From: an uncultured Methanosarcinales archaeon
GTDB lineage: Archaea > Nanobdellota > Nanobdellia > Woesearchaeales > CAXGTL01
Direction: 5' to 3'
NCBI GenBank assembly: GCA_964535955.1
Contig: CAZHVK010000003.1
Span: forward strand, 62,001-126,000
Length of the DNA stretch: 64,000 bases
The notes under the pieces were generated by a model. The model searched no databases. It was not told the origin of the DNA and worked only from the letters and a program-made list of their open reading frames with translations. Both the position numbers and the translations under genes were made by a program. The first letter of the stretch is position 1, and every line of letters starts with the position of its first letter. Below are positions 3,101 through 18,805 of the stretch, piece by piece.

Positions 3101-4013
3101 TCAAGGTTATATTAAAAGATTACCAATCCAAACATATAAAAAACAGAAAAGAGGAGGAAAAGGAGTTATTGCAGCGTCTACAAAAGATGAAGATTTTGTA
3201 AGTGACTTGTTCATTGCCTCAACACATTCATATATCTTATTTTTCACAGATAAAGGACAAGTTCATTGGTTAAAAGTTTATGAAGTGCCAATAGGATCTA
3301 GACAATCAAGAGGAAAAGCAATAATAAATTTATTGAATGTAAAAGATGAAAAAATAACAGCAACTGTTCCTGTAAGAGAATTTAAGCAAGGAGATTATCT
3401 AATAATGGCAACAAAAAAAGGAACAATAAAAAAAGTAGATATTACTATGTTTCAAAAACCAAGAAAAGGAGGAATTCGAGCAATGACTTTAGAACAAGAT
3501 GATATTCTTATAAATGTAGTAAAGACAGATGGAAATAAACAAGTGTTATTGGCAACAAATAATGGAATGGCTATAAGATTTAAAGAAACAGATTTAAGAT
3601 CTATTGGAAGAACTGGAAAAGGTGTTAGAGGAATTAATCTAAAAAATGATGATAAAGTAATTGATATTATTGTTGTAGACAATAATAAAGATATTTTAAC
3701 AGTAACAGAAAATGGTTATGGAAAAAGAACAAAGATAAATGAATACAGAATAATAAACAGAGGAGGGGTAGGAGTAATAAACATAAAAACAGATGAAAGA
3801 AATGGGGAAGTAATAGGTGTATCAGCAGTGCAAGAAGAGGATGAAGTCATGCTAATAAGTAAGAATGGCATAATGATAAGAACACCCACTAAAGGCATAT
3901 CATGCATAGGTAGAAACACAAAAGGTGTTAGAGTCATGAGGCTAGAACAAGATGATAACTTAGTTGCAGTTGCAAAGATTATAAATGAAGAAGAGGATGA
4001 AAAGAATAAATAA
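162..4013 (+). CDS. gyrA: DNA gyrase subunit A, interrupted by an intein
   Basis: [33 protein letters not shown], catalytic [20 protein letters not shown], GyrA-box QKRGGKG and C-terminal pinwheel repeats. ATG at 162 preferred over TTG at 135. Confidence 0.97.
624..1925 (+). mobile_element. Intein (434 aa) with LAGLIDADG homing endonuclease, inserted right after the catalytic Tyr of GyrA
   Basis: Junctions RY/CITGDSL and [11 protein letters not shown] (Cys1, His-Asn terminus, Thr+1). Block B GSYNHP. LAGLIDADG-like motifs LLGALVSEG and LISLFEGDG. Confidence 0.95.
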
Positions 4014-4016
4014 ATA

Positions 4017-5138
4017 ATGAAAGCACTTCTCATAACACATCCAGGTATAGAAGATATTTCTGCACTAGAAGTCAAAGAATTAATAAAAAAACAATCAAAA
4101 ATAGAAAAAAGCATAGTAACATTTGAAACAAATAAATATGAAGACTTAGTAAAGATTGCTTACAAATCACAAAGTATATTAAAAATATTGGTGTTACTTG
4201 ATAAAATAAAAATAAAAAAGATCAATGATGTAAAGAAATTAAAAATTAATATAAAAGATTGGATAAATAAAAACACAGAATTTAAAATAAAATGTAAAAG
4301 AATTGGCAAACATGATTTTAAAAGTAAAGATATAGAAGAAGAAATAGGCGACTTAATCATAGATAAATATAAGTTAAAAGTGAATCTTACTGACCCTGAA
4401 CTTATTTTATATGCTTATATATATGAAGATAATTTATACTTAGGTGTTGATATTACAGGCATGGATTTAAGTAAAAGAAGTTATAAAATATTTAATAATC
4501 CTGACTCATTAAAAGGTATCATAGCTTACGCTTTAGTGAGGATAGCAGACTACAAATTAGGTAAAAAGTTCATTGATCCTTTTTGTGGTGATGGGACAAT
4601 AATAATTGAAACAGGATTATTTGCATCTAATTTTCCAGTAAGATTTTATGAAAAAGAAAAATTTTTATTTAGAATGCAAAAGCCATTCCAAAACATAGAT
4701 TTTGATAAATTATTAGAAAAAATTGATTCAGAATATAAAAAAAATAAATTAGATATAACAGGAAGTGAAAACTTATTAAGATATATTAACTCATGCAAAA
4801 AGAATGCAAAGATTGCAGGTATCTCTAAAAATATAGAATTCAGAAGATATGATATAGAATGGTTAGACACTAAATTAGCTAAAGATGATATTGATTTAAT
4901 AGTAACTAAAATAATCCAGCCTGGAAGATCTATTTCAATCAAAAAAATAGAAAAAATATACAAAGAACTATTTTATCATGCAGAGTTTATATTAAAGAAA
5001 ACTGGCAAGATTGTTATCATATCTAAAAACAAAGATTTAATAGAAAAAAAAGCAAAAGAATACAAACTAAAAACAAAAGTCAATAGACAAATAAAGATTG
5101 GTGATCATAATAATTATATATTGGAAATCACAAAATAA
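4017..5138 (+). CDS. THUMP-domain RNA methyltransferase (Trm14/RlmL-like)
   Basis: N-terminal THPGIE, THUMP region (CKRIGKHDFKS, VNLTDP), DLSKRSY and SAM-binding DPFCGDGTI. The NPPY-type motif is not recognisable. Confidence 0.8.
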   Translation: MKALLITHPGIEDISALEVKELIKKQSKIEKSIVTFETNKYEDLVKIAYKSQSILKILVLLDKIKIKKINDVKKLKINIKDWINKNTEFKIKCKRIGKHDFKSKDIEEEIGDLIIDKYKLKVNLTDPELILYAYIYEDNLYLGVDITGMDLSKRSYKIFNNPDSLKGIIAYALVRIADYKLGKKFIDPFCGDGTIIIETGLFASNFPVRFYEKEKFLFRMQKPFQNIDFDKLLEKIDSEYKKNKLDITGSENLLRYINSCKKNAKIAGISKNIEFRRYDIEWLDTKLAKDDIDLIVTKIIQPGRSISIKKIEKIYKELFYHAEFILKKTGKIVIISKNKDLIEKKAKEYKLKTKVNRQIKIGDHNNYILEITK

Positions 5139-5156
5139 TAATAATAATAATAATAA
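5134..5156 (+). repeat. (AAT)n microsatellite, about 7 units, overlapping the stop codon
   Basis: aataataataataataataataa read directly. Confidence 0.8.
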
Positions 5157-15478: not shown

Positions 15479-16138
15479 ATGAAACAAACAAAACATGCAA
15501 AAATATTCGAAGACAGAGGAAGAATATACACAATCAACCTAGTCAAGGGTAAAAAAGTTTATGGTGAAAGATTATTCATAGAAAGAGGAATTGAATATAG
15601 AGAGTGGGATATAAGAAGAAGTAAGTTAGGCGCTGCAATTAAAAAAAATATAAAACAATTAGGTTTTAAGCCAGGCAATGTAGTATTATATTTAGGATCA
15701 GCTTCTGGAACTACAGTGAGTCATGTATCAGATATTATTGGGCCAAAAGGTCTCATCTTCGCACTTGAATTCGCTCCAAGAGTTATGAGAGATCTTATGT
15801 TTATGTGTAATGACAGAAAAAACATTGCACCTATTCTAGCAGATGCACATCAACCACAAAAATATGAAGACAAAATGTGTATGGTTGATTTTGTATTTCA
15901 AGATATTGCTCAAAAAGACCAAGCAGAAATCTTCCTAAGGAATTGTGAACTATTTCTAAAAGATGATGGATTAGCAATAATTGCAATCAAATCAAGAAGT
16001 ATAGATATTACTAAAAAACCAACATTAATTTACAAAATAGTTGAGAACAAACTTAAAGAAAAAATGGATGTCATAGACTTCAAAACATTAGATCCATTTG
16101 AAAGAGATCATTGTGTATTTTTGTGTAGAAAGAGATAA
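15479..16138 (+). CDS. flpA: Fibrillarin-like rRNA/tRNA 2'-O-methyltransferase
   Basis: VYGE, YREW..RSKLGAAI, VLYLGSASGTTVSHVSD, FQDIAQKDQ, LDPFERDH. Follows nop5. Confidence 0.96.
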   Translation: MKQTKHAKIFEDRGRIYTINLVKGKKVYGERLFIERGIEYREWDIRRSKLGAAIKKNIKQLGFKPGNVVLYLGSASGTTVSHVSDIIGPKGLIFALEFAPRVMRDLMFMCNDRKNIAPILADAHQPQKYEDKMCMVDFVFQDIAQKDQAEIFLRNCELFLKDDGLAIIAIKSRSIDITKKPTLIYKIVENKLKEKMDVIDFKTLDPFERDHCVFLCRKR

Positions 16139-16169
16139 AAATAAACGTAAATATTGCCACTTTAAAATC

Positions 16170-16183
16170 GAAACATTTAAATA
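16170..16183 (+). promoter_or_regulatory. BRE/TATA promoter (GAAACA-TTTAAATA) for a leaderless transcript starting near 16207
   Basis: TATA-like box ends about 23 nt before the ATG at 16207, the usual archaeal TATA-to-start spacing. Confidence 0.65.
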
Positions 16184-16206
16184 GTTTTTATACACTACTT
16201 ATTACT

Positions 16207-16245
16207 ATGACAAAAACAAATTATTTAGGATGTTGTTGTTGTTAG
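16207..16245 (+). CDS. Putative polycysteine leader peptide MTKTNYLGCCCC
   Basis: atg aca aaa aca aat tat tta gga tgt tgt tgt tgt tag, placed between a TATA box and tRNA-Cys/cysK/cysS. Confidence 0.75.
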   Translation: MTKTNYLGCCCC

Positions 16246-16304
16246 AATTCTTTCATTGTTTTAGTTTTTAATCTATAATCATTCAAGATTATCATGATTA
16301 TTCT

Positions 16305-16376
16305 GGAAGTGTGGCCAAGCGGCTAAGGCAAGAGGCTGCAACCCTCTGATCCTGGGTTCAAGTCCCAGCACTTCCT
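16305..16376 (+). tRNA. tRNA-Cys (GCA)
   Basis: Acceptor GGAAGTG/CACTTCC, D-arm GCC/GGC, anticodon stem AGAGG/CCTCT with loop CT-GCA-AC, T-arm CTGGG-TTCAAGT-CCCAG, discriminator U. No encoded CCA. Confidence 0.97.
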
Positions 16377-16477
16377 TCTCAAAAACTAAGATAATAATGA
16401 AAGAAACAATAAAACAAAGAATAAGATGAAAAAAATAAAAAATAAATTAGAATAAATAATATTGGAGGCGAATAAAA

Positions 16478-17371
16478 ATGAAAAATAACATATTATGGAC
16501 AATAGGAGACACACCCCTTGTAAAAATAAATAAATTAAACCCTAATAAAAATGTAAAGATCTATGCAAAATTAGAAGGGTTTAACCCAACTGGAAGTATA
16601 AAAGATAGAATTGCACTAAAGATGATCCAGCAAGCAGAAGTAGAAGGTATGCTAACAAAAGACAAAACAATAATAGAAGCAACATCAGGCAACACAGGAA
16701 TTGCTTTGGCAATGATTGGAACAGTTAGAGGATACAAAGTTGAAATTGTCATGAGTGAAGCTGTTTCAGTTGAAAGAAGGAAAATAATAAAAGCATTTGG
16801 AGCAAAGATTACATTAACAGACCCAACTCAAGGAACAGATGGTGCAATTAGAAAAGTAAAAGAATTGACTGAAAAATATCCAGATAAATATTTTACACCA
16901 GATCAATTTACAAACAAGTACAATAAGATTGCACATTATAAAACAACTGCAGAAGAAATTTGGAGAGATACTGGTGGAGAAATAGATTATTTTGTTTCTT
17001 CATTAGGAACATCTGGTACAATCATGGGTGTTGGTCTTGGATTAAAAGAAAACAATCCAAATATAAAGATTGTTGAAGCACATCCTGTAAAAGGGCATTA
17101 TATCCAAGGCTTGAAAAATATGGAAGAAGCAATTGTTCCTGCAATCTATGATCCATCAAAGATTGATGAATCAATAATGATAGAGACAGAAGATGCATTT
17201 GAGATAACTCGGCAGATTGTAAAACAAGAAGGTATATTTGTAGGTATGAGTAGTGGAGCAGCACTCTTAGCAGCAATAGAAATAGCAAAAAAAATTGATT
17301 CAGGCACAATAGTTGTTATATTTCCAGACAGAGGGGAAAAGTATTTAAGTACAACATTATTTAATGAATAA
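16478..17371 (+). CDS. cysK: Cysteine synthase (O-acetylserine sulfhydrylase, CysK/CysM family)
   Basis: IGDTPLV, NPTGSIKDR (PLP Lys), EATSGNTG, GTSGT, GMSSGA, PDRGEKYLST. GGAGG SD upstream. Confidence 0.93.
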   Translation: MKNNILWTIGDTPLVKINKLNPNKNVKIYAKLEGFNPTGSIKDRIALKMIQQAEVEGMLTKDKTIIEATSGNTGIALAMIGTVRGYKVEIVMSEAVSVERRKIIKAFGAKITLTDPTQGTDGAIRKVKELTEKYPDKYFTPDQFTNKYNKIAHYKTTAEEIWRDTGGEIDYFVSSLGTSGTIMGVGLGLKENNPNIKIVEAHPVKGHYIQGLKNMEEAIVPAIYDPSKIDESIMIETEDAFEITRQIVKQEGIFVGMSSGAALLAAIEIAKKIDSGTIVVIFPDRGEKYLSTTLFNE

Positions 17372-17389
17372 AGTACAAAGGTGAAGAAT

Positions 17390-18805
17390 ATGAAAAAACA
17401 CGAATTGTATTTATATAATACACTCACAAGAAAAAAAGAATTATTTAAGCCAATAGTTTCAGGAGAAGTGGGATTCTATAGTTGTGGGCCTACTGTTTAC
17501 TGGAATCAGCATATTGGGAATCTAAGGACTTATGTTTTTAATGATATTCTTAAAAGAGTATTATTATATGATGGATATAAAGTAAAACACATTATGAATG
17601 TCACAGATGTTGGCCACCTTACCAGTGATGCTGATACTGGCGAAGACAAGATGGAAAAAGCAGCTGCAAAAGAAGGAAAAAAAGCACAAGACATTGCAGA
17701 TTATTATTGGAAAATATTTAGACAAGACTTTAGAAAACTAAATATTATTGAACCAGATGTATGGTGTAAAGCAACTGAATACATACAAGAACAAATTAAT
17801 ATGTTAAAAGTTCTTGAAAAAAAAGGCTTCACATATAAAACATCTGATGGTATTTATTTTGATTCATTAAAATTAAATGATTATGGTAAATTAGCAAAAC
17901 TAAAGATAGAAGGATTAAAAGCAGGAATAAGAACAGATGTAAGAGAAAAAAAAAACCCAACTGATTTTGCTTTGTGGAAATTTTCAGAAAAACCAGGAAT
18001 AAGACAACAAGAATGGAACTCACCTTGGGGAATTGGGTTTCCAGGTTGGCATCTCGAATGTTCTGCAATGGCAGCAAAACATTTAGGTAAACAATTTGAT
18101 ATTCATACAGGTGGTGAAGACCATATCACTGTTCACCATACAAATGAGATTGCACAAGCAGAAGCAGCTTTTGGCAAAAAACCATGGGTAAAGTATTGGT
18201 TACATGGAGCTTTTTTAACATCAAAAGGTGAAAAAATCAGCAAAAGCAAAGGAGGTTTATTTACAATAGATAACTTAGAAGAAAAAAGATTCAAACCTTT
18301 AAGTTACAGATACTTGTGTCTTAATACACATTATAGAAAACAATTAAGCTTTTCATTAGAAGTTTTAAAAAATGCAGAAAAATCATATGATAGATTAAGA
18401 ACCATAATCAGAGATTTAAAACAAGAAAAAGATAAATCAAAAACAGAACAAAATACAAATAAACAAGAAATAAATGAATTATATTTAACAAAATTCGAAG
18501 ATGCAATCAATGACGATCTTAACATGCCACAAGCATTAGCAGTTTTATGGGACTTTGTTAGAGACAAAGATGCAAAAGGTAAATTAAAGACAATTGAAGA
18601 AATGGAAAAAGTGTTTGCTTTGGATTTGTTAGTTGAAGAAGAGAAAGTTAAAGTTTCTGATAAAATCACAAAACTTATTGATGAGCGTGAACAAGCAAGA
18701 AAAGACAAAGATTTTGCAAAAGCAGATAAAATAAGGGATAAACTAAAAGAAAAAGGAATAATTCTAGAAGATACTAAAGATGGTGTTAGGTGGAAAAAAG
18801 TTTAA
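17390..18805 (+). CDS. cysS: Cysteine--tRNA ligase
   Basis: CGPTVY, HIGN, DFALWK, PGWHLECSAM, DIHTGG..HHTNE, KISKS, AD.IRD.L. AAGGTGA SD before ATG 17390. Confidence 0.97.
   Translation: MKKHELYLYNTLTRKKELFKPIVSGEVGFYSCGPTVYWNQHIGNLRTYVFNDILKRVLLYDGYKVKHIMNVTDVGHLTSDADTGEDKMEKAAAKEGKKAQDIADYYWKIFRQDFRKLNIIEPDVWCKATEYIQEQINMLKVLEKKGFTYKTSDGIYFDSLKLNDYGKLAKLKIEGLKAGIRTDVREKKNPTDFALWKFSEKPGIRQQEWNSPWGIGFPGWHLECSAMAAKHLGKQFDIHTGGEDHITVHHTNEIAQAEAAFGKKPWVKYWLHGAFLTSKGEKISKSKGGLFTIDNLEEKRFKPLSYRYLCLNTHYRKQLSFSLEVLKNAEKSYDRLRTIIRDLKQEKDKSKTEQNTNKQEINELYLTKFEDAINDDLNMPQALAVLWDFVRDKDAKGKLKTIEEMEKVFALDLLVEEEKVKVSDKITKLIDEREQARKDKDFAKADKIRDKLKEKGIILEDTKDGVRWKKV

Follow-up and report, generated by a model that had tools for sequence, protein, structure and literature searches.

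A 12-codon cysteine-run open reading frame as a probable cysteine-sensing switch before archaeal cysteine genes

Leader-peptide attenuation is a textbook mechanism of bacteria and requires transcription and translation to be coupled. In the trp, his and leu operons of enterobacteria, a leader peptide rich in cognate codons couples the supply of charged tRNA to read-through of a terminator situated ahead of the biosynthetic genes. In the Escherichia coli tna operon, a ribosome that halts on the last part of the leader open reading frame (ORF), TnaC, masks a Rho entry site beside the stop codon. The current study concerns a short ORF (sORF) of 12 codons, the last four of which encode cysteine, that precedes a tRNA-Cys gene, a cysteine synthase gene (cysK) and a cysteine–tRNA ligase gene (cysS) in archaeal DNA, within a stretch of 64,000 nt from contig CAZHVK010000003.1 (the window). 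Comparable leaders have been described in actinobacteria. Peptides with Cys runs were predicted before cys and cbs operons of Mycobacterium, Propionibacterium acnes and Bifidobacterium longum, and the tna operon served as an analogy for those actinobacterial Cys leaders that lack hairpins (Seliverstov et al., 2005; PMC1262725, in the portion of the paper drawn on here). In mycobacteria, leaderless polycysteine sORFs, namely Ms5788A and the members of the 'Cys ribulon', act as attenuators, and the logic of the system is proven there, according to the part of the preprint that is cited here (Canestrari et al., bioRxiv 10.1101/834739).

The 12-codon ORF probably acts as a switch that senses cysteine, and switches of this type have until now been described from bacteria alone. 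The initial annotation of this DNA, made from its letters alone, had put forward such a role and knew of no well-characterized archaeal equivalent. In agreement with this, neither a leader peptide with an amino-acid run nor an attenuator of this type was found for archaea in the searched literature, outside which most subscription journals fall, and earlier reports are possible.

Cysteine-run ORFs in front of cysK

The sORF lies at 16207–16245 on the forward (+) strand, as do all the window features given below unless stated otherwise. It encodes MTKTNYLGCCCC in 12 codons followed by TAG (ATG ACA AAA ACA AAT TAT TTA GGA TGT TGT TGT TGT TAG), and no rival ORF of 20 aa or more overlaps it on either strand. 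The four TGT codons, the proposed sensor, occupy 16231–16242 and form the sole (TGY)4 run on both strands of the 64 kb window, as against 10 runs present in which a trinucleotide is repeated four times. Cysteine takes up 4 of the 12 codons of the leader peptide, compared with 1.16% of the 18,984 residues encoded by the 46 long ORFs of the window, in which there are four CC dipeptides and no CCC. Elsewhere in the window, nothing comparable was found among amino-acid-run sORFs behind TATA boxes. An (AAT)7 microsatellite at 5134–5154, in a convergent intergenic spacer, gives, when read on the minus strand, a short ORF with a Tyr run and a TATA-like word in front of it; this is most likely due to chance. 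In all, 96 short ORFs in the window have a TATA match of at least 7/8 near the spacing seen at the sORF. Since a TATA box with a short ORF is common in such AT-rich DNA, the argument against chance must rest on conservation in other genomes.

Relatives were collected by searching the window CysK against one genome per species (GTDB), which gave 599 pattern matches, 557 of them confirmed, and the best 80 were kept. Together with the window this makes a sample of 81 loci, the 80 consisting of 21 labelled as archaeal and 59 others; the archaeal-labelled loci number 22 with the window included. The window CysK is 73–92% identical to that of Dehalococcoidia, Bacteroidales, Patescibacteria, Methanomassiliicoccales and others, and because such high identity spans very different bacteria and archaea, the 80-locus sample is taxonomically mixed. 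A strict scan of all loci on both strands, for at least three TGY codons and then a stop, returned nine matches including that of the window, and six of the nine are on the sense strand, within the 350 nt that precede cysK. A broader rule admitted short ORFs of 5–60 codons with at least three Cys in the final five codons and Cys as the last codon, and for this count only the 8.9-kb piece around cysK was taken from the window. There were nine such matches in 35.9 kb of upstream sense DNA and five in 1.18 Mb elsewhere, which makes the density upstream of cysK about 60 times higher. When the upstream regions were shuffled 1000 times, the matches averaged 0.085 and never exceeded 2. One match, in L060, was discounted, being inside a gene on the opposite strand. 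This leaves eight Cys-run sORFs in 7 of the 81 loci, all directly 5' of cysK and on the same strand. The seven loci are all among the 22 with archaeal labels. None of the 59 others has a convincing Cys leader before cysK, and four that were noted (L011, L017, L038 and L040) show merely scattered Cys codons.

The leader peptides differ in sequence and agree in how they end. They read MINTIYLGCCCC in L001 (stop codon TAG), MINAICCC in L003 (TGT TGC TGT, TAG), MKPNQCCCC in L029 (TGT TGT TGT TGC, TAG), M(M)IQMKTKTCCCC in L068 (TGT TGC TGT TGT, TGA), MIHMNNLICCCC from a GTG, or alternatively MNNLICCCC, in L079 (TAA), and ...NFSSCCCRC, with MVKKKSAKKKESGCSCC upstream of it, in L064 (TAA). Start codons are ATG or GTG, and the peptides have 8–24 residues. 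All the differences within the Cys runs are synonymous T/C changes at the third codon position, bar one CGT in L064. The residues N-terminal to the run vary (T/I, K/N and N/I between the window and L001), and at all seven loci the run adjoins the stop codon. Synonymous-only changes in the run, a free N terminus and the position of the run at the stop together make up the pattern of a leader peptide, in which the codons matter and the peptide sequence does not. The initial annotation had made its proposal depend on conservation of the TGT run in frame in relatives, and had looked to TGT/TGC variation as a further sign. Both are present: three or four Cys codons precede the stop in 7 of the 81 loci, with synonymous variation and with TAG, TGA and TAA as stops. 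A chance microsatellite is ruled out by this in-frame conservation across seven cysK loci.

Comparison of the window with L001 shows where the DNA is most conserved. The Cys run and stop codon are identical at 15/15 positions, the stretch from the stop to the tRNA at 57/59 and the tRNA at 71/72; for comparison, identity is 0.87 in cysK, 0.79 in cysS and 0.49 in the spacer between the tRNA and cysK. The TATA box is identical at 8/8 positions between flanks that are 62–74% identical. In addition, a block TAGAATTCTTTCATTG(T/G)TTTAGTTTT recurs in L003 and L029, and the block after the stop codon is near-identical in L001, L003 and L029.

Conservation of this sort could also belong to a DNA element with no translational role, either a simple TGT repeat or a site acting at the DNA level (promoter, tRNA leader or transcription-factor site) and inherited by descent. 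The 10 trinucleotide runs of the window, a palindrome within block TAGAATTC, and the TATA box before the L003 sORF, which must serve the tRNA too, are all compatible with such an element. However, the run is kept in frame between start and stop at seven loci through three different stop codons and through TGT/TGC changes, the hosts belong to different phyla (CysS of the window and of L003 are 42% identical), and four of the seven loci have no tRNA gene. This explanation is therefore very improbable. A tRNA promoter or leader alone was likewise rejected as a general account, because 4/7 sORF loci have no adjoining tRNA.

Alternatively, the sORF could serve to make its peptide, which might be small and thiol-rich or bind metal, be co-expressed with cysteine synthase and regulate nothing. 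Small Cys-rich proteins do exist in archaea, and the conserved part of the sORF is indeed a C-terminal Cys cluster. However, that cluster is the sole conserved part of a product of 8–24 residues, the sORF always heads cysK, and between the window and L001 nucleotide conservation continues for 59 nt past the stop (57/59). Of the explanations considered here, a peptide product is hardly credible. Taken as a leader ORF that is under selection for cysteine sensing, the sORF is accounted for with good confidence.

Promoter, U tracts and a possible termination switch

A TATA box, TTTAAATA, at 16176–16183 is the putative leader promoter. It matches TTTAWATA at 8/8 positions, starts at −31 from the ATG of the sORF and is separated from it by 23 nt, which bears out the initial description of a TATA box followed about 23 nt later by a 12-codon ORF with four TGT codons before its stop. 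Across the window, TATA words that match at 7/8 positions or better cluster at −34 to −30 from the ATGs of long ORFs, and 10 of the 46 genes have one at −35 to −29, as is typical of leaderless mRNAs. Gene starts in the window fall into two classes. The leaderless class lacks a Shine–Dalgarno (SD) sequence and has its TATA box at −30 to −34, and the other class has GGAGG or GGTG at −10 to −15. The TATA box stands at −31 from the sORF in the window and in L001, at −30 in L003, at −33 in L029 and at −34 in L068, so that five of the seven sORF loci have a match of at least 7/8 at −30 to −34. This spacing equals that of the leaderless genes of this genome, and a leaderless sORF transcript is therefore predicted as probable. 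An SD sequence (GGAGG, GAGGT or AGGTG) is present before cysK in all seven loci, which suggests that cysK is one of the later cistrons of its transcript. At L003, just 26 nt lie between the sORF stop and the tRNA, and the sORF promoter must therefore drive the tRNA as well.

The stop codon and the conserved block after it, TAGAATTCTTTCATTGTTTTAGTTTTT (16243–16269), form a candidate conditional archaeal terminator. The block holds a run of four U (U4, 16259–16262) and a run of five (U5, 16265–16269), at 14–24 nt past the stop, and the T-rich stretch 3' of the sORF reads AATTCTTTCATTGTTTTAGTTTTT. At least two tracts of four or more T (T4+) are found no more than 36 nt after the stop of the cysK-proximal sORF in 7/7 loci, an arrangement met in 2.5–11% of background windows per locus. 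Operon ends in the window have several T5–T8 tracts immediately 3' of the stop codon; at least two T4 tracts within 30 nt of the stop occur in 5 of the 46 window genes, compared with 7.7% of intergenic windows. Archaeal termination occurs at U tracts, and aCPSF1 recognizes U4 tracts, as stated in a review (PMC13675443). The post-stop U tracts are thus a candidate terminator-like signal. A scan for bacterial promoters and terminators, which is uninformative for an archaeon, found no bacterial-type terminator.

These elements could work together as follows. Transcription would begin at or next to the ATG and generate a leaderless mRNA, and a ribosome would trail RNA polymerase through the 12 codons. 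When Cys-tRNA is plentiful, the ribosome would reach the stop codon and depart, and the naked U-rich RNA beyond it would allow termination, either intrinsically at the oligo-U or through the U-tract-binding cleavage factor aCPSF1/FttA; little tRNA-Cys, CysK and CysRS would then be made. When Cys-tRNA is scarce, the ribosome would stall on the four UGU codons. Its front edge would then be close to the stop codon and immediately follow a polymerase positioned on the U tracts, and termination would be suppressed and the operon read through. If a ribosome footprint of ~27–28 nt is assumed, a ribosome with a Cys codon in its A site would have its leading edge between about the stop codon and +9. 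The RNA of a polymerase on the U tracts (+14 to +24) would exit at about +0 to +8, so that the stalled ribosome would abut the polymerase. An abutting ribosome could hinder intrinsic release or the access of aCPSF1/FttA, while a departing one would leave the U-rich RNA uncovered. In ribosome profiling of Haloferax, Cys codons in the A site cause weak pausing, as given in the cited portion of that study (PMC7261190). The termination mechanism in this form is put forward tentatively, with a little less than even confidence.

Several observations weigh against U-tract attenuation by the sORF. T tracts are frequent in AT-rich spacers, 15 of the 22 archaeal-labelled cysK loci have no Cys-run sORF, and the TATA box of L079 and L064 is not at the usual distance. 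A weak TATA-like word of the window, TCTATAAT, matches at 5/8 positions 33 nt before the tRNA, and a separate tRNA promoter is therefore possible there; similarly, a T6 tract follows the tRNA in L003, so that cysK may form a separate unit at that locus. RNAalifold gave −0.74 kcal/mol and no compensatory pairs for the four closest leaders, that is, no conserved RNA switch, and the leaders of the window, L001 and L003 fold no better than shuffled sequences (z-scores of −0.02, +1.07 and −0.21). In addition, we know of no experimental precedent for a stalled ribosome that stops archaeal termination.

RNA pairing is more evident at other loci. In L029, L068 and L079 (z-scores of −3.0, −3.0 and −1.9), a hairpin joins the start region of the sORF to the region after its stop and places the Cys codons in the loop. 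The start:post-stop duplex beats shuffles in these three loci (0.02, 0/500 and 0/500, respectively), and a duplex of the start with the Cys run is better than shuffles in the window (0.034) and in L064b (0.008); in L001 and L003, neither pairing beats shuffles. The window also has a 10-nt inverted repeat, 16210–16219/16256–16265, with 90% complementarity. Pairings of this kind would be expected of a hairpin switch or mRNA-stability device, in which the sORF start pairs with the U-rich region after the stop or with the Cys run and is kept open by the ribosome alone. The closed hairpin might be a terminator stem, block re-initiation or change decay from the 5' end, or a stalled ribosome might shield the 5' end from 5'–3' exonucleases. 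However, the pairing partner varies from locus to locus and is missing in L001 and L003, the consensus fold is empty, and A-rich early codons will pair with UGU/GUU runs through composition alone. Such a device is considered unlikely. A helix between codons 2–5 and the post-stop region, for which covariation was perceived by eye (A–U in the window and C–G in L029), was unconfirmed and is not claimed. Mutually exclusive terminator and antiterminator hairpins were not found by RNAalifold, z-scores or the terminator scan. No T-box or other Rfam family apart from tRNA was detected, either in a search of the window and the six other loci at gathering thresholds or in a search of 16100–16500 at E≤1.

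The SD sequences before cysK raise the further possibility of translational attenuation as in Mycobacterium smegmatis Ms5788A, where the free Cys tract pairs with the SD sequence of the next gene and a stalled ribosome frees it. The sORF layout is the same, with a C-terminal Cys run and a transcript predicted here to be leaderless, and all seven loci offer an SD sequence as a partner. However, the Cys run pairs weakly (−2.1 to −8.0 kcal/mol) with the last 28 nt ahead of the cysK start, and no better than shuffles in 7/7 loci, where 0.31–0.98 of shuffles are as good, and a whole tRNA gene separates the pairing partners in the window, L001 and L003. SD sequestration of the mycobacterial kind is thus unsupported, and it is quite improbable as an account of these loci. 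An attenuator interpretation, with cysK as its conserved target, is supported by every computational test available. On balance, it is fairly probable that the sORF is conserved and translated, and that it senses cysteine in cis from within the leader of this archaeal operon.

Gene context and host genomes

The initial annotation had placed a U-rich tract, tRNA-Cys(GCA), cysteine synthase and CysRS in one orientation behind the sORF, and all of these are confirmed, the genes by ARAGORN, Rfam, Pfam and NCBIfam. The tRNA-Cys (GCA) gene lies at 16305–16376 (ARAGORN; Rfam RF00005, 61.4 bits). An inverted repeat, ATAATCAT/ATGATTAT, whose 8-bp arms match perfectly around a loop of 11 nt (16275–16301, arms 16275–16282/16294–16301), ends 3 nt 5' of the tRNA gene; the repeat is retained in L001 with one change in the loop and is absent in L003 and L029, and processing and pausing are possible roles. 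A spacer of 101 nt, A-rich and free of T tracts, separates the tRNA from cysK and has GGAGG at its end (16464–16468), the SD sequence at −14 from the cysK ATG. cysK (16478–17371) encodes a cysteine synthase of the cysK/cysM family (Pfam PALP, 2.7e-71; NCBIfam TIGR01136 cysKM, 387 bits with a cut-off of 344). cysS, encoding cysteine–tRNA ligase (CysRS), follows at 17390–18805 with an alternative GTG start at 17381 (Pfam tRNA-synt_1e, 1.7e-90; NCBIfam TIGR00435, 467 bits with a cut-off of 340), and its own SD sequence, AGGTGA, stands at −11. Genes for Nop5 and fibrillarin are situated just 5' of the leader, an archaeal signal recognition particle RNA is encoded elsewhere in the window, and GC content is ~28%, all of which mark the host as archaeal. 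Named relatives of the window CysS are from Pacearchaeota, Nanoarchaeota and Woesearchaeota (63–70% identity), with single matches labelled Aenigmatarchaeota and Patescibacteria among them, and the window therefore probably derives from a DPANN archaeon.

L001 shares with the window the order Nop5–fibrillarin–sORF–tRNA–cysK–cysS. Its title names Methanosarcinales, but this bin label is probably wrong, because the locus has a GC content of 30% and is fully syntenic with the window, for which the named CysS relatives are from Pacearchaeota, Nanoarchaeota or Woesearchaeota. At L001 3925–4000, the region of the cysK SD sequence and start (GGAGGCGAA...ATG) is duplicated ~55 nt apart, and the tRNA–cysK spacer is 192 nt long compared with 101 nt in the window. 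L003 (Nanoarchaeota, 41% GC) has the sORF, an intron-bearing tRNA-Cys, cysK and cysS, with a divergent PPDK gene adjoining. The tRNA-Cys(GCA) of L003, at 2809–2912, is interrupted between positions 31 and 32, a non-canonical site, by an intron of 30 nt. Neither ARAGORN at default settings nor Rfam at gathering thresholds detected this tRNA, which was found with the intron option alone.

In the remaining loci the unit is shorter. L029 (Woesearchaeota) has the sORF and cysK only, and L064 (Aenigmatarchaeota, 52% GC) has sORFs and cysK, followed by ftsZ. In L068 and L079, which have Thermoplasmata/Thermoplasmatales labels, the sORF and cysK are located behind genes for an Fe-S NTPase, a cupin and a thioredoxin. 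All the taxon-named relatives of the L068 HypD in the top 120 are Thermoplasmatales or Thermoplasmatota, which supports the Thermoplasmatales-type label of that locus. The hosts of the Cys-run sORF are thus Nanoarchaeota/Woesearchaeota-like archaea, Aenigmatarchaeota and Thermoplasmatota. The initial proposal of a self-contained loop of cysteine synthase, tRNA-Cys and CysRS fits the window, L001 and L003, but not the other four of the seven loci: tRNA-Cys and cysS belong to the unit in 3/7, and cysK, which is found 3' of the sORF in 7/7, is the sole constant partner.

L064 differs in having two tandem Cys-rich short ORFs 5' of cysK (3670–3723 and 3809–3889), and both have a TATA-like word of their own ~27 nt before them and a GC hairpin with U6–7 after them. 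These may represent a double attenuator in this Aenigmatarchaeota genome of 52% GC.

Other features were observed before cysK genes that have no Cys sORF. In L010, a Woesearchaeota cysK–cysS locus, the cysK leader contains an inverted repeat, TTTTCGGTTTT...AAAACCGATTTT (2230–2300). Six loci of Methanomassiliicoccales type (L009, L015, L023, L042, L061 and L076) share a conserved motif, GATATAGTWATTATAAATGCTC...TTTCACCA, ~70–20 nt before cysK, which is probably another form of cysK control. L025, labelled Thermoplasmatales, and L011, labelled Bacteroidales, have TTTGTTGGCAATTT in common ~50 nt before cysK; this suggests a common regulatory site or a misbinned contig.

CysK phylogeny was assessed with a quick tree, in which bacteria and archaea are mixed, and this CysK seems to move widely between anaerobic members of the two domains. 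On the tree, the sORF label needs at least three state changes, and as few were obtained in 3 of 500 shuffles. Gain and loss of the sORF are not settled by it, because the strongly supported branches are compatible with a single origin.

The most far-reaching proposal from these data is that the leaderless polycysteine ORF represents the first ribosome-mediated, amino-acid-sensing transcription attenuator of Archaea, in which a stalled ribosome would block termination by oligo-U/aCPSF1(FttA). It would be old or mobile across Nanoarchaeota, Aenigmatarchaeota and Thermoplasmatota, and in some lineages the amino-acid synthase, a tRNA gene and the cognate synthetase would all be subject through it to a single feedback by charged tRNA. 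This proposal in full is speculative, and about one chance in three is the most that it is given here. If true, ribosome position would serve as a metabolic sensor in the third domain, and the leader would offer a compact natural test object of ~65 nt for the interplay of the archaeal ribosome, RNA polymerase and aCPSF1/FttA. It would also suggest that the cysK retained by genome-reduced DPANN archaea serves translational cysteine supply, and would flag unannotated ORFs of 8–24 codons as regulatory parts of archaeal genomes.

Comparison with described attenuators

The archaeal sORF resembles the mycobacterial polycysteine sORFs in being a first cistron with a C-terminal Cys run at the head of cysteine-metabolism genes, leaderless there and predicted to be so here, with ribosome pausing as the proposed read-out of Cys-tRNA (Canestrari et al., bioRxiv 10.1101/834739, within the part of the preprint cited). 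It differs in its archaeal host and TATA promoter and in the length of the Cys run, which is 3–4 codons here and eight consecutive codons in that account. A duplex of the Cys tract with the SD sequence, demonstrated in the same part of the preprint, was not found at the archaeal loci. Conserved U-tract, terminator-like signals follow the stop here, and three of the loci include tRNA-Cys inside the unit. Given the differences in domain, promoter type and downstream signal, the lack of the SD duplex and the tRNA gene found at some loci, the sORF is not regarded as a member of the mycobacterial family.

The leaders predicted by Seliverstov et al. (2005) likewise have Cys codon runs near the stop and no conserved terminator or antiterminator hairpins, and factor-dependent termination was proposed for them, as set out in the cited portion of the paper (PMC1262725). 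Those leaders are bacterial and Rho was the factor suggested there, whereas the candidate signal in the archaeal loci is an oligo-U tract. With the trp, his and leu attenuators the sORF shares a leader peptide enriched in codons for the regulated amino acid; unlike them, it has no alternative hairpins and no bacterial-type terminator that could be found, and its mRNA is predicted to be leaderless.

The resemblance to tna lies in a stall site at the very end of the leader ORF and a termination signal from a few to about 25 nt past the stop. In tna, the stall results from the nascent peptide and free tryptophan, whereas scarcity of charged tRNA is proposed to cause it here, and the proposed factor is aCPSF1/FttA, or else termination would be intrinsic at the oligo-U. 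Finally, the signal after the sORF is like archaeal U-tract terminators, as characterized in the review cited above (PMC13675443), in having at least two tracts of U4 or longer and no obligatory hairpin, as also seen at operon ends in the window. It differs from these in lying inside a 5' leader and not at the 3' end of an operon, and in consisting of U4 and U5 tracts compared with the U7–U8 of strong operon ends.

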